IMG/VR virus record: IMGVR_UViG_2541047938_000008
Location: 1-41,587 of that record
Reading direction: 5' to 3' (one strand)
DNA length: 41,587 nt
DNA from: a virus
Taxonomy: Duplodnaviria > Heunggongvirae > Uroviricota > Caudoviricetes
Position 1 is the stretch's first letter. Every line of letters begins with the position of its first letter. A model generated the notes under the pieces. The model ran no database searches. It saw only the letters and a list, made by a program, of their open reading frames with translations, and was not told the origin of the DNA. The position numbers and the translations under genes are program-made. This document shows, piece after piece, positions 2,836-7,499 of the stretch.

Positions 2836-3198
2836 ATGTTAAAACTTTTTGCTAAGTACACATCGATAGGCGTACTCAACACGCTCATCCATTGGGTTGT
2901 GTTTGGTGTTTGCGTGTATGGACTATCAACAAGCCAGGCATTGGCGAACTTTGCAGGGTTCGTCGTAGCCGTCAGCTTTAGTTTCTACGCTAATGCTCGT
3001 TTCACTTTTAAAGCATCCACTTCCACGCTGCGTTACATGCTTTACGTTGGGTTTATGGGAACGCTGAGTGCTGCTGTAGGTTGGGCTGCTGACAGGTGTG
3101 GCTTACCACCAATCGTCACACTGGTGGCTTTCTCAGCCATTAGTCTCGTATGTGGATTTTTCTATTCTAAGTTCATTGTCTTTAGGGAAGCGAAATGA
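2836..3198 (+). CDS. gtrA: GtrA, bactoprenol-linked glucose flippase
   Basis: 120-aa four-helix membrane protein, first gene of a gtrA-gtrB-gtrS set overlapping by 4 nt. Confidence 0.85.
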
Positions 3199-4112
3199 AA
3201 ATTTCTCTGGTCGTTCCGGTCTTCAATGAAGAGTCCACGATACCGATTTTCTATAAAACGGTGCGAGAGTTCGAGGGGCTAAAGCAATACGATGTTGAAA
3301 TCGTGTTCATTAATGACGGAAGCAAAGACGCGACAGAATCAATTATTAATGCGCTTGCTGTTTCTGACTCGTTAGTTACTCCTCTATCATTCACCAGGAA
3401 CTTTGGCAAAGAACCTGCGTTGTTTGCGGGACTTGAGCATGCTACTGGCGACGCTGTAATTCCGATTGATGTTGACCTTCAGGATCCGATTGAGGTCATC
3501 CCTCACCTAATTGCAAAGTGGCAGGCAGGGGCCGACATGGTTCTTGCCAAACGTTCAGATCGCTCTACTGATAGCAGACTTAAGCGCAAGTCTGCTGAAT
3601 GGTTCTATAAGCTGCACAATAAGATTAGCTCTCCAAAAATTGAAGAGAACGTTGGTGATTTTCGTCTGATGTCGCGTGAAGTTGTCGAGAACATAAAAAA
3701 ATTGCCAGAGCGCAATCTTTTTATGAAGGGAGTCCTTAGCTGGGTTGGTGGAAAAACTGACGTAGTTGAGTACGTACGTGCAGAACGTGTTGCTGGTGAT
3801 TCAAAATTCAACGGGTGGAAGCTTTGGAATCTGGCACTTGAGGGGATTACTAGCTTTTCGACGTTCCCGTTAAGAATGTGGACTTACATTGGTCTGTTTG
3901 TTGCCGGATTATCCTTCCTGTATGGCGCATGGATGATTTTAGATAAGATTCTTTTTGGCAACAGTGTTCCAGGCTACCCATCACTACTTGTGTCTATCCT
4001 GTTCCTTGGGGGCATACAACTTATAGGTATAGGCGTTTTGGGTGAGTATATTGGTAGGATATATATTGAAAGTAAAGGTCGGCCTAAATATATCCTTAGA
4101 GGGAAAAAATGA
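3195..4112 (+). CDS. gtrB: GtrB, bactoprenol glucosyltransferase (GT2 family)
   Basis: 305 aa, N-terminal GT2 domain (VVPVFNEE, DxD region) and C-terminal TM helices. Confidence 0.9.
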
Positions 4113-5530
4113 AAGTTGATAAATTGCGCTTTAGTAATAGATTAATATATATAGCTATTCTTTATGTTTTACCTTTAATACTGGCAAATGTATTATATAT
4201 TGACGACATGGGAAGAGCGCTGTATGGGTATGGGTGGGAGGTAGATGGTAGACTCTTCGCATCTTATTTAATGCAGGCGCTATCATTTGGTGGTGCAATA
4301 GTTCCTATGTTCCCATATTCAGTAACTGCTGCTGCATTGATAGTATTCCTTGCAGGTGTAATTGTTTCTAATATCATTATTAAAGAATACTCTTTAACAC
4401 TCAATGTATGCTGCCTTTTATTGCTGACATCTCCGTTTTATTTGGAGAACCTTTCATATAGATATGATGCAATACCAATGGCGGCATCTATTCTTCTAGC
4501 TGTCATTCCATTCTTGGTGAATGGTATGGTTTTATTTTCATTACTCTCAGTTATATCTCTCTTCATTGTATTTGGATTGTACCAGACGTCTACCATGGTG
4601 TATTTCGCAATGTTTATTTGTATATCATTCAGAGATGTAAAGGAATGTGGTTTAAAATATGTAATCAAGTTCGCAATAATATGCACGCTATCATTTATTG
4701 TTTCATATATGCTTTATTCCTTATGGGTTAGATTAATGGGGTTAAGCATGCCCAGAGGGGAGCTAATACACTTTAACGGAGATACGTTTAATTCTATATT
4801 GACTAGAATAAAGGCATACTCTCAGATCTACTCATACCTTTTTTCTCGAGAGTACATTATAGCTATACTTCCTATAACGGCAGCAGTGCTATGGTCCTTT
4901 TTTAAGCATCTTAAGGATGATCTACGTAGAGGTATAATATATACAATTGCGCTAGCGGCATCTGTTTCCTTAATTACAATCCTTACAACAATGCCTAATC
5001 TTTTATTAAAAGATCCATGGTATACTCCTAGAACATTTGTATGTTACCCATTTATTTTAATTGCTATTTCTATTTATTGCCTCAAGGCTGTGAGTGATAT
5101 ATTTTTAGGTATTTCATTGAGTGTTATTGTTTTTTTCTCTTTCGTGCTATCAAGCTCATATGGTAGCGTTTTAAAGGTCAATAATGATTATGATAACTTC
5201 TTAGCACAATCTATATCTGAAAAAATAATGAAGGATAGCAATCGTGGGGAGTATACTGTTGTAATTATGGGTAAGCAGAGTAGACCTATTCTAAGCAGCA
5301 TGTTTTATGATAAATTTCCTATACTTGTTAAATTAGCTCCATTATATATGTCTGAAGGCTGGTATTGGGGGGTAAAAGATCTATCGCGTTTTCTAAACAT
5401 AAGATCTTCAAGCGATGCTCAAAAAGTCATAAAGAGCGCATGCGATTTTGACGAGATATACAAATCATCAATATATAACTTATATCATAGAAATGATGTA
5501 TATATAGTTGACTTTGAGAAAAAATGCTAA
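4109..5530 (+). CDS. Serotype-specific O-antigen glucosyltransferase (GtrC/GtrS type)
   Basis: 473-aa polytopic membrane protein, markedly AT-rich, third gene of the gtr operon. Confidence 0.8.
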
Positions 5531-5550
5531 TTTAATGCAATAGGCGCCAA

Positions 5551-5572
5551 TCTGGCGCCTACTTGATTTATG
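5551..5572. terminator. Bidirectional hairpin between convergent gtrS and tailspike
   Basis: AGGCGCCAATCTGGCGCCT stem-loop between two convergent stop codons. Confidence 0.5.
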
Positions 5573-7499
5573 TTGATGGAGTTGCACTTGCAATTAGTAT
5601 TTCACCACCTGAAAATGCCGTCAGCCCTGTTATTTCACTGGATAACAAAGCTTTAAACATATTAGAATCCTGCCCAAAGACAACACCTGAAAAAAAGGTT
5701 CCTAGATTTCTATACCCTCCAGCAACAGGCATGCGACATAAAATATAGTTAGTTCCGTTGTATGTTCCTGTAAACCATCCGTCATAATCAGTTAAAGCTT
5801 GTGATGAACAATGTGCAGCCTTGACGAGTTTGGCCCTAGGGGTTATATCACTACCAACAACATTGAAGTCATAAGCCCCAGCGATTGAATTCATCCCAGT
5901 GCCACTTCGTAAAGTGTAAACCGTTCCTATGCATCCACGAGAACCATAATATCCTCCCATGATACGATAATAGGGACCAGCAGATTGATCAGGGTTAGGA
6001 AGTGACAGATCTCTTATAACCGTAGTTCCGAAGTTGGGTATTGTTGCCGTCCCGCCATCATATCCAATGTTAGAAAACGTTGAGGTTACTGTGTCATATA
6101 TATTTTTTTGCGGCCATGCATTTTCCGACTTGTTGCTATAAATAATGTCTAGCTTCGCACCTGTTAAAGTTTTTGACCTGGCCCCATTAAAAACAACATC
6201 AGAACTTCCTACAAACTCATTTATCGTAATCTTTGCATAACCAGTAAGATCAAAGAAATATGATCCTGCAACCTGTGTTTGTGTGTATATATGCACTACA
6301 CCAATAGATAAATTCGCGCCCACACCTTTAATCAACGTTCCATTGTTAGCCCTGTCAGGCTGCTCACATCCTAGTGATGAAGCGCTATATGAACCTGCGT
6401 TAAATATGTATGGAGTTCCTGAGCAATCATCAGATGCCAACGGACCTAGTTCTACATATGATCCTGAAAGCTCGAATGAACAATAATTAGAATAAAATAC
6501 ACTGCAGTTTTTAATGCAATAGCTTGTCCCACCATTTACATGCACACCTCCGTATATTCCTACACTATGCAAGCCTTGAATAACCAAATTTGACAACATC
6601 ACCCCTACAAAAGCGTTACCGCCAAAATAAACACCCCACTTAGTCGCTGTTATAAACACATCATCCAATTGTTGTCTAGTTGCAGTATTTGGCGTGTAAT
6701 ATCCATAGCTTTCCGCTGTCTCATCTATTATGGTAATGCCTTTTAAATGTATATTCCTCTTGCCTTTTGCATAAAATACTGCATTCACATCTTGAGAGCT
6801 AACAGCCTCTTTTTTAATTATTGTGTAGCTACCCTCTCCTTTAAACTTACTGCCATCTGGCATATAGTATTTATCACCATAAATGTCCTCAGCATCATAT
6901 AAAAGAATGCTATCTGTTATAGTGTATTCACCCGCAGGGACATAAACCACTTTACCCTGCTGGGCCGATACAAGCGATGCTCTATTAAAAGCGAGAGTCC
7001 AATCAGGGTCTGAATCTAGTTTAAAGTCAAGAACAGAAATAGTTTCAGAGTTTTTCTGGTGCTGAGTTCGATTTACGGATCCGCTATATGGCTGTTGTAC
7101 GGCTATCTTCGCATCATTAACAATAGTAGGACCATAGTCTTGCCCCAACTCTGATCTTAGTTGGTCTGGGTCATATTTTAGAACATTGCCAATGTAGTCA
7201 ACTTGTGTTCCGTATGCATCGTAGATAGCCATGCTATGGCCCTCTACAGTAACTATCTTAACCAACTGACCGTTATATACTATCTTTCCGGCAGCATTGA
7301 TAACCAGCGGCTGGGATGTTTGCACATGGGAACCATCTTCGTTCTCGATGTATACAGGTATCTGATTGGCAGGGTTAACCGGGTCTGTATCGATTTGACC
7401 GATGTAGATTCTACCATTCGGCAATGCTTTGAAAGTACGTGAATCTGTGAATATTGGTCTTGGGTTGGTGACAACAACGTTTGGTACGATATCGGCCAT
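5568..7499 (-). CDS. Tailspike protein (P22 gp9-like head-binding domain, divergent receptor-binding domain)
   Basis: N-terminal ~115 aa ([15 protein letters not shown]...[27 protein letters not shown]) match the P22 tailspike head-binding domain; remainder AT-rich and different. Confidence 0.85.

Follow-up and report, generated by a model that had tools for sequence, protein, structure and literature searches.

The gtr and tailspike genes described here quite probably make up the part of a P22-like (Lederbergvirus-type) prophage at argW that, in the canonical layout, serves serotype conversion and adsorption, and the matched base composition of the third gtr gene and the receptor-binding domain (RBD) of the tailspike is no proof that the two were acquired together. 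The window, that is, the whole 41,587-nt stretch of DNA analysed, holds this prophage of ~40 kb inserted at argW of E. coli (Table 1). [quoted passage not shown] Insertion of an IS21-family element has broken gene 16 in two, so that this copy of the phage is probably defective; the ORFs of the gtr operon and the tailspike are intact. An Rfam scan of the window returned three tRNAs and nothing else, and a PADLOC search of its unannotated ORFs gave no match.

Table 1 Features of the prophage end carrying the gtr operon and the tailspike gene (coordinates are positions in the window).
Feature	Position	Strand	Description
tRNA-Arg(CCT) argW	1009..1083	+	bears attL
attL core	at 1054		TTGCAGGTTCGATTCC, 16 nt; second copy (attR) at 41352
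Tyrosine integrase gene	1209..2402	+	
UmuD-like ORF, degenerate	2403..2783	-	probably 106 aa (2403-2723)
gtr upstream region	2724..2835	+	
gtrA	2836..3198	+	120 aa; GtrA/flippase-family small membrane protein; PF04138, E 1e-14
gtrB	3195..4112	+	305 aa; GT2 bactoprenol glucosyltransferase; PF00535, E 3e-31
AT-rich block	4014..7220	.	from GC3 change points
gtrS	4109..5530	+	473 aa; gtr(type)/gtrC position; PF14264, PHROG 4829
Variable cassette	4113 to ~7150		defined by homology
GC-rich hairpin	5541..5561	.	9-bp stem; within the 37-bp spacer
Tailspike RBD	5568..7150	-	about aa 115-643
Tailspike head-binding domain	7151..7499	-	P22-like; about aa 1-115; PF09008, E 1e-58
Gene 16 (ejection protein)	7655..8203	-	C-terminal fragment
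IS21-family element	8191 to ~10771		interrupts gene 16

The ORFs and profile matches confirmed the gene content and orientation given in the preliminary description, a gtrA-gtrB-gtrS operon facing the tailspike gene. The operon has the composition expected of the gtrA-gtrB-gtr(type) class, with gtrA first, then gtrB and a coupled polytopic third gene, and its members are joined by operon-like 4-nt start/stop overlaps (gtrA/gtrB at nt 3195–3198 and gtrB/gtrS at nt 4109–4112). GtrB is 88% identical in amino acid sequence to P22 GtrB and bears two hydrophobic segments at its C-terminus, as expected of membrane anchors; at the nucleotide level, gtrB is about 75% identical to P22 gtrB and 89% to that of the E. 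coli prophage L148. The operon and the 643-aa tailspike gene (5568–7499, minus strand) converge on a spacer of 37 bp between the stop codons. The hairpin in this spacer is a candidate bidirectional terminator, and a terminator is annotated at the equivalent position in P22.

Two GATC sites upstream of gtrA (2766–2769 and 2779–2782) correspond in alignment to the two proximal ones of the region that governs gtr phase variation in P22. Phase-variable gtr operons of the P22/Salmonella type, which are switched by Dam and OxyR, carry two pairs of GATC sites, four in all, ahead of gtrA (PMC8022706). By alignment to the P22 region described there, the window lacks the distal pair of this Dam/OxyR switch and keeps the proximal pair as the only part of the four-site arrangement.

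The third gene, gtrS, matched PF14264 (Glucos_trans_II, E 1e-24) and PHROG 4829 (“GtrC-like”, E 8e-163), and about nine hydrophobic segments are followed by a hydrophilic C-terminus of ~120 aa. Judged from these matches and this topology, its predicted product is a serotype-specific polytopic membrane glucosyltransferase of the GtrC/GtrII type. This type of gtrS is rare, the nearest relative beyond its own 90% cluster being 48% identical, and a PDB sequence search with GtrS as the query gave no match. A megablast search of 50,697 phage records and 5,426 complete E. coli genomes found no high-identity record for either gtrS or the RBD.

The head-binding domain of the tailspike is P22-like, as had been described: besides its PF09008 match, it hit the P22 gp9 N-domain in the PDB (E 1e-60), is about 80% identical to residues 1–122 of P22 gp9, and also matches Sf6 gp14. 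Profile and fold searches of the C-terminal domain both pointed to a beta-helix. The RBD matched PF12708, a right-handed beta-helix was predicted for tailspike residues ~150–450, and the AF2 model is a confident beta-helix over RBD residues ~30–330, with the C-terminal 190 residues poorly modelled. Foldseek aligned this model with beta-helix hydrolases and with phage tailspikes and depolymerases, including the Sf6 TSP (E 2e-5 to 1e-3). Among isolated phages, the best match to the RBD was a hypothetical protein of SKML-39 (37% identity), and no close homologue of the RBD has been characterised; its target could in principle be a capsule instead of the O-antigen.

The lysogenic O-antigen conversion proposed in the preliminary description is a prediction that homology supports well, with a layout as in P22. 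From homology to the corresponding systems of the Shigella Sf phages and of Salmonella phage P22, we infer the following mechanism: GtrB in the lysogen would transfer glucose from UDP-glucose to undecaprenyl phosphate, GtrA would then flip the glucose-carrying lipid to the periplasmic face, and the polytopic GtrS would add the glucose to a single site in the O-antigen repeat of the host. This glucosylation would alter the polysaccharide that is bound and cut by the phage's own tailspike, presumably a beta-helix depolymerase joined to the N-terminal head-binding domain, with an altered serotype and blocked superinfection as the expected outcome. Such an architecture, in which the receptor used by the phage's own tailspike is modified, is textbook for P22-like phages, and the novelty here is limited to a rare gtrS type and an RBD without a characterised homologue.

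The composition of the window is not uniform. The GC content is 0.335 in gtrS, 0.398 in the RBD and 0.472 in the whole window, and the GC content at third codon positions (GC3) is 0.291 in gtrS and 0.296 in the RBD, about 3 sd below that of the 38 other ORFs (0.483 ± 0.064); GC3 of the head-binding domain is about 0.43–0.46. At four-fold-degenerate sites, gtrS and the RBD did not differ from each other (chi2 p 0.70), and each departed from coat plus portal (p ~1e-10). Since GC3 and the four-fold-degenerate sites are shifted alike, the AT-richness does not stem from amino acid composition alone, and this explanation was ruled out. The gap in total GC between gtrS and the RBD arises at codon positions 1 and 2. 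Thus, the shared AT-richness that had been noted is real, but its extent had been underestimated: it covers the C-terminal ~82–85% of the tailspike, not two-thirds.

On the gtr side, the GC3 shift starts ~100 nt inside the 3′ end of gtrB (~nt 4014), and nucleotide homology to other gtrB genes extends to nt 4093–4113. On the tailspike side, the homology boundary is at ~nt 7150–7160 (about aa 113), and GC3 changes at codon 93. On the preferred reading, the block corresponds to the serotype-specific parts of the two genes, gtrS itself and the RBD, placed back to back between conserved flanks, gtrAB on one side and the head-binding domain on the other.

Low GC3 proved to be general in both gene classes. 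In a survey of 102 complete tailspikes that carry the head-binding domain and are 500 aa or longer (63 non-redundant groups), RBD GC3 was below that of the head-binding domain in 90% of the groups (mean difference −0.09) and below that of the backbone in 98% (mean difference −0.12), whether or not gtr was present. The idea that gtr-adjacent RBDs are generally AT-richer was not supported (−0.141 with gtr versus about −0.115 without; MWU p 0.24). Across 45 non-redundant gtr/tail-protein pairs collected in a survey of gtrB loci, gtrB had a mean GC3 of 0.45, the third gene one of 0.32 and the C-terminus of the convergent tail protein one of 0.34, and the third genes were invariably AT-rich. Both classes are AT-rich relative to the backbone likely because they are drawn from pools widely exchanged across Enterobacterales and phage types. 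For readers of genomes, low GC common to a gtr third gene and an RBD is therefore not proof of joint acquisition. Davies et al. 2013 (PMC3688519) addressed neither GC content nor tailspikes.

The two segments also assort separately. The RBD family of the window adjoins three non-homologous third genes (in the window, in L144/L148 and in L147) and occurs without any third gene in L015, L020 and L145, which form one recent lineage with a T7-like lytic phage and therefore count as one independent observation. Conversely, the closest relatives of gtrS (44–48% identity), found in low-GC Proteus, have a convergent tail protein that is unrelated or missing. The same holds at other loci: L187 and L184 have third genes that are 95.6% identical and unrelated tail proteins, and L180 and L213 have tail-protein C-termini that are 92.5% identical and third genes that are 24% identical. 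A further locus, L084, with a P22-type RBD and without gtr, was rejected as an independent case, being a deletion derivative that keeps a gtrC remnant. The histories of the gtrS and RBD families are accordingly not congruent, both having varied partners, and the atypical composition that the two genes share is not diagnostic of a module. Since both gene classes are generically AT-rich and are exchanged separately, the matched composition is no evidence of a single acquisition event.

The preliminary description suggested that receptor enzyme and receptor modification were acquired together, as a single module. In the explicit form of this view, gtrS and the RBD would have come from one AT-rich donor by a double crossover in the coding regions of gtrB and the head-binding domain, possibly catalysed by Erf, which the prophage encodes. 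This account, which we consider unlikely, agrees with the nearly equal GC3 and indistinguishable four-fold sites of the two genes, with the Proteus origin of the closest gtrS relatives, and with the conserved gtrB and head-binding domain that bound the block exactly; in distant relatives, homology ends at these edges (4093–4113 and 7156–7162). In addition, a remnant prophage with a different, diverged backbone (L012/L013) has only 4 mismatches in 3.1 kb over gtrS and the entire tailspike, with 6–8% divergence directly past the tailspike start, indicating that recent co-inheritance occurs. All contigs that have this exact tailspike and are long enough have this gtrS, and P22 versus phage L is a case of short-term linkage in the literature (PMC8022706). 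However, matching composition is expected without co-transfer, the varied partners of both families speak against a fixed unit, and a donor with both genes was looked for and not found. Moreover, what L012 shares extends over the head-binding domain as well, which puts the right breakpoint at the start of the tailspike and away from the edge of the AT-rich block; this is the only recent exchange seen, and the L012 contig ends short of the left end. The module view is only partly borne out: the two genes are linked physically over short times, but composition makes a weak case for their joint acquisition. Under the preferred reading, of a canonical prophage end with separately exchangeable segments, gtrS and the RBD are often co-inherited because they are adjacent; one crossover in each of the conserved flanks could replace both together, and separate exchange also happens.

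A slight surplus of GC3-matched neighbours across loci was also seen. GC3 of the third gene and of the convergent gene correlated over the 45 pairs (rho 0.43), and most of this similarity was lost once gtrB GC3, as the local background, was controlled (partial r 0.21, p 0.17); 29% of the pairs were within 0.02 of each other versus 16% expected (within-tertile permutation P 0.07). Earlier permutation tests on 13–16 pairs were borderline (P 0.045–0.38) and were replaced by this analysis. The two genes agree within 0.005 in the window, L144, L147 and L016, which is rarer under random pairing. Since matched pairs exceed the random expectation, a residual signal of co-history between third gene and RBD may exist. 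A still more doubtful proposal than the one-donor import is that of a “serotype cassette”, made up of the RBD and the gtr third gene arranged tail to tail and usually swapped whole by relaxed homologous recombination in the gtrB and head-binding-domain flanks. If this were true, a single event would retarget both adsorption and superinfection exclusion, and the near-perfect GC3 match in the window, L144, L147, L016 and L022 would be a trace of shared history.

Finally, a region-specific compositional regime, in which the gtr(type)/RBD region turns AT-rich wherever it is located and its genes converge without a shared origin (possibly through relaxed codon selection, AT-biased mutation on often-transferred DNA or H-NS-type silencing), is very improbable: three same-family RBDs do lie within 0.005 GC3 of non-homologous gtr neighbours (0.298/0.292, 0.277/0.272 and 0.317/0.321) and the gtr-less members of the family have a GC3 of 0.41–0.46, but this contrast depends on a single gtr-less lineage whose higher GC3 is explained by sharing with the GC-richer lytic T7-like phage, RBDs beside gtr show no significant excess of AT over those without it when all P22-like loci are taken together, the partial correlation is non-significant, and clear mismatches occur (0.387/0.308 in P22 and 0.243/0.441 in L045).

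The tail-to-tail layout of gtr and tailspike genes is already known (PMC2629481, PMC10408124). Like the window, P22 has gene 9, a terminator and gtrC-gtrB-gtrA on the opposite strand next to int, an AT-rich gtrC (GC3 0.30) and the two proximal GATC sites ahead of gtrA. Unlike in the window, P22 GtrC is only 24% identical to GtrS, the RBDs are unrelated, and the RBD of P22 does not exceed its own head-binding domain in AT-richness (0.384 versus 0.387); P22 attP lies between gtrA and int, whereas int abuts argW in the window. The Shigella flexneri phages SfI, SfII, SfIV, SfV and SfX carry gtrA-gtrB-gtr(type) operons in which the A and B genes are conserved and the third is variable and serotype-specific (PMC3259042, PMC2629481). 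These phages and yfdG-yfdH-yfdI of E. coli K-12 CPS-53 (KplE1) follow the same three-gene logic as the window. However, the Sf phages fall outside the P22-like group and have no tailspike gene opposite their gtr operon, and the window gtrAB are only about 75–78% identical to E. coli yfdGH at the nucleotide level, with a third gene of a different type. CPS-53 also attaches at argW and has int and gtr in the order seen in the window.

Shigella phage Sf6, E. coli phage HK620 and Kapi1 are P22-like podophages at argW, like the phage in the window, and have O-antigen-specific tailspikes in which the head-binding domain is conserved, as well as a function that modifies the O-antigen (bioRxiv 10.1101/2021.04.09.439263). 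They differ in that Sf6 has an O-acetyltransferase gene (oac) in place of gtr, the gtr genes are not recognisable in Kapi1, and their RBDs are unrelated by sequence to that of the window, with a fold-level match to the Sf6 TSP only. The RBD family itself is shared with E. coli prophages of the L148/L144 (strain CUWW10) and L147 types (69–70% amino acid identity), which have third genes non-homologous to gtrS (28% identity within PF14264 in L144/L148, a PF19528 gene in L147) and a tail protein with a different N-terminal anchor, so that their phage type is not P22-like. Both types nevertheless resemble the window in the tail-to-tail arrangement with matched low GC3, and L148 also has the UmuD-like ORF and gtrAB at 89–92% nucleotide identity.

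The gtrA-gtrB-gtrS operon that the preliminary description had placed opposite the tailspike was located, with all four genes present and their ORFs intact. The description had also drawn an AT-rich block over gtrS and the C-terminal two-thirds of the tailspike. The block itself held up, as gtrS and the tailspike receptor-binding domain (RBD, ~aa 115-643) are not uniform with the window in either GC or third-codon-position GC (GC3), but its extent was revised to about five-sixths of the tailspike. At four-fold-degenerate sites, gtrS and the RBD were alike (p 0.70), and each was strongly unlike coat plus portal (p ~1e-10). 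GC3 has one change point at about nt 4014, in the final 100 nt of gtrB, and another at codon 93 of the tailspike. At the nucleotide level, homology to other phages stops at 4093-4113 and restarts at 7156-7162.

Coordinates, composition and assignments of the principal features
Feature	Position	Strand	GC	GC3	Remarks
Entire window			0.472		
Other 38 ORFs				0.483 (sd 0.064)	
argW, tRNA-Arg(CCT)	1009-1083				adjoins yfdC (1-933)
attL / attR	1054 / 41352				16-nt core inside argW and its repeat; ~40.3 kb between copies
UmuD-like ORF	2403-2783	-			PHROG 3469; between int and gtrA
gtrA	2836-3198	+	0.457	0.46	PF04138
gtrB	3195-4112	+	0.437	0.43	GT2; 88% aa identity to P22 GtrB
gtrS	4109-5530	+	0.335	0.291-0.292	PF14264 GtrII family; PHROG 4829 'GtrC-like', E 8e-163
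GC-rich hairpin, 9-bp stem	5541-5561				in spacer between gtrS and tailspike stops
Tailspike	5568-7499	-			643 aa; PF09008 head-binding domain + beta-helix RBD
Tailspike RBD			0.398	0.296-0.298	
Tailspike head-binding domain			0.444	0.43	
IS21-family element in gene 16	8191 to ~10771				istA 8384-9925, istB 9937-10686; ~7 bp target duplication

Two surveys bear on the meaning of this match. The first covered 114 loci with a P22-type head-binding domain plus reference loci, from which the 102 tailspikes that were complete and no shorter than 500 aa gave 53 RBD clusters and 63 cluster-by-status groups. RBD GC3 was below head-binding-domain GC3 in 90% of the 63 groups and below backbone GC3 in 98% (means -0.09 and -0.12, respectively; Wilcoxon p ~1e-11), and loci with and without a convergent gtr operon showed no difference in this survey (-0.141 vs ~-0.115; p 0.24). 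The second, seeded with gtrB, comprised 45 non-redundant pairs in which a third gene (the gtrS slot) and a long convergent gene lie tightly tail to tail. GC3 averaged 0.45 in gtrB, 0.32 in the third gene and 0.34 in the C-terminus of the convergent gene. The GC3 values of the two neighbours were correlated (rho 0.43, p 0.003) and both followed gtrB GC3 (rho 0.47 and 0.61, respectively); with gtrB GC3 controlled, the partial correlation was 0.21 (p 0.17), and permutation inside background tertiles gave P 0.07 (n = 45 throughout). Taken together, the surveys and the background-controlled correlation mean that matched AT-richness is largely what would be expected, without joint origin, of two generically AT-rich gene classes on a shared background, and the residual neighbour signal is at most weak. 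Among single loci, the same pattern was seen at 10001-13573 of L022, from the low-GC host Proteus terrae (GC3 0.20 in gtrS and 0.18 in the RBD, compared with 0.36 in the head-binding domain and 0.32-0.34 in ejection genes), and L045 from Xenorhabdus sp. TCT-1 was an outlier, its 549-aa third gene having a GC3 of 0.44 vs 0.24 in the facing RBD.

We then compared the partners of each half. The window gtrS is rare: few contigs carry its 90% cluster, and its next relatives share 48-44% identity with it. These relatives face a tail protein of 912 aa in a non-P22 phage (L021, Proteus sp.), a head-binding-domain tailspike with an unrelated RBD (L022), an unrelated convergent gene (L016, E. coli) or, in a Salmonella prophage remnant (L025), no tail gene. 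Within the RBD family, the P22-like window pairs the RBD with a PF14264 third gene, gtrS (GC3 0.298/0.292); L144 and L148, which are not P22-like, have a PF14264 gene 28% identical to it (0.277/0.272); and L147, with a PF18668 anchor, has a PF19528 gene (0.317/0.321). There is no third gene in the P22-like L015 and L020 (RBD GC3 0.41-0.43) or in the T7-like lytic L145 (0.46); these three are mutually 92-94% identical and were therefore counted as one lineage. L015 and L020 are gtr-less E. coli prophages, the former at argW like the window, with integrases 97.6% identical. In the T7-like tail fibre of L145 (4001-6217), the last 400 aa of the RBD are 92% identical to the L015 and L020 tailspikes, which indicates that the RBD alone has crossed phage families recently. 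Clean examples of each half exchanged singly are provided by L187 and L184, with third genes 95.6% identical and unrelated tail proteins, and by L180 and L213, with tail-protein C-termini 92.5% identical and third genes just 24% identical.

Signs of linkage were found at closer range. All contigs with the exact window tailspike and enough length also carry the window gtrS. Two remnant prophages with a backbone unlike the window's, L012 and L013, differ from it by 4 mismatches in 3.1 kb over gtrS (from 4377) and the entire tailspike, and diverge by 6-8% directly right of the tailspike start. Since this shared block takes in the head-binding domain, it differs in extent from the AT-rich block; neither contig reaches the left end of the shared block. 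L012 and L013 are independent assemblies broken at one point of gtrS, equivalent to window 4377, which suggests a repeat, an IS insertion or a strain-level branch. The proposal that receptor enzyme and receptor modification were acquired as one module is supported only in part: the two were recently inherited together, but a shared composition does not diagnose joint acquisition, and at the family level the two halves demonstrably assort independently.

The tailspike N-terminus proved P22-like as described, with residues 1 to ~115-122 matching the P22 gp9 head-binding domain (PDB match E 1e-60; ~80% identity). AlphaFold2, with a 16-sequence alignment, modelled RBD residues ~30-330 with confidence as a right-handed beta-helix and the last 190 residues poorly (mean pLDDT 58.6). 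In a Foldseek search of the PDB, the model matched beta-helix glycoside hydrolases and lyases as well as phage tailspike depolymerases, including Acinetobacter phage AS12 gp42 and Sf6 TSP (E 2e-5 to 1e-3). No close RBD homologue was found among isolated phages of the searched collection, the best match being a hypothetical protein of the T4-like Salmonella phage SKML-39 (37% identity). Proteins at 66-70% identity, mostly 640-aa E. coli prophage tailspikes, form about 85 clusters, and the RBD also occurs fused to PF18668 and T7 tail-fibre N-terminal anchors.

The window is 100% identical to scaffold KE702357.1 of the E. coli draft assembly GCA_000461255.1 and is nearly filled by one P22-like prophage, with virion genes of P22 type (ejection proteins gp7, gp20 and gp16, coat, portal and scaffold) along with an Erf recombinase, a c2-like repressor and a Nun-like gene. 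Since the IS21-family element cuts ejection-protein gene 16 into 7655-8203 and 10744-12522, this copy is probably defective and non-infectious; the gene is unbroken (759 aa) in L003 and L008, prophages otherwise identical to it. Two genes form a second AT-rich islet in the early-left region (36050-36394 and 36879-37943): the one for the Nun-like termination factor (GC3 0.26) and an ORF of 354 aa (GC3 0.34; PHROG 1376), for which a PADLOC scan gave no match. The prophage also carries tRNA-Thr(TGT) and tRNA-Asn(GTT) genes (27356-27511, minus strand).

From the UmuD-like ORF, which had no Pfam S24 match, through gtrB, the window is 85-93% identical in nucleotides to L143, L144 and L148, non-P22 prophages at another chromosomal site, marking this segment as one that travels between phage types as a unit. 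Upstream of gtrA (2724-2835) there are just two GATC sites, 2766 and 2779, which in alignment correspond to the proximal pair in the Dam/OxyR phase-variation region of P22. Because the UmuD-like ORF 5' end occupies the place of the absent distal pair, the gtr operon may have lost phase variation or may vary in an altered way. Successive gtr genes overlap by 4 nt, and the gtrS product has ~9 hydrophobic segments followed by a hydrophilic C-terminus. The gtrS and tailspike stop codons are separated by 37 bp, and P22 has an annotated terminator where the window has its hairpin.

The predicted O-antigen conversion is well supported by homology. By analogy with the systems characterised in Shigella and Salmonella (PMC2629481, PMC3259042, PMC8022706), GtrB would produce undecaprenyl-phosphate-glucose, GtrA would flip it across the membrane and GtrS would add glucose at a specific O-unit position, which would change the receptor of the phage's own tailspike and limit superinfection. 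The relation of L012 and L013 to the window parallels that of P22 to phage L, in which the tailspike and gtrABC are 98.7-100% identical and the ejection proteins 30-65% identical (PMC8022706). A gtr operon facing the tailspike is a layout already known; novel here are a rare gtrS type and an RBD without a characterised homologue in this otherwise well-known arrangement.
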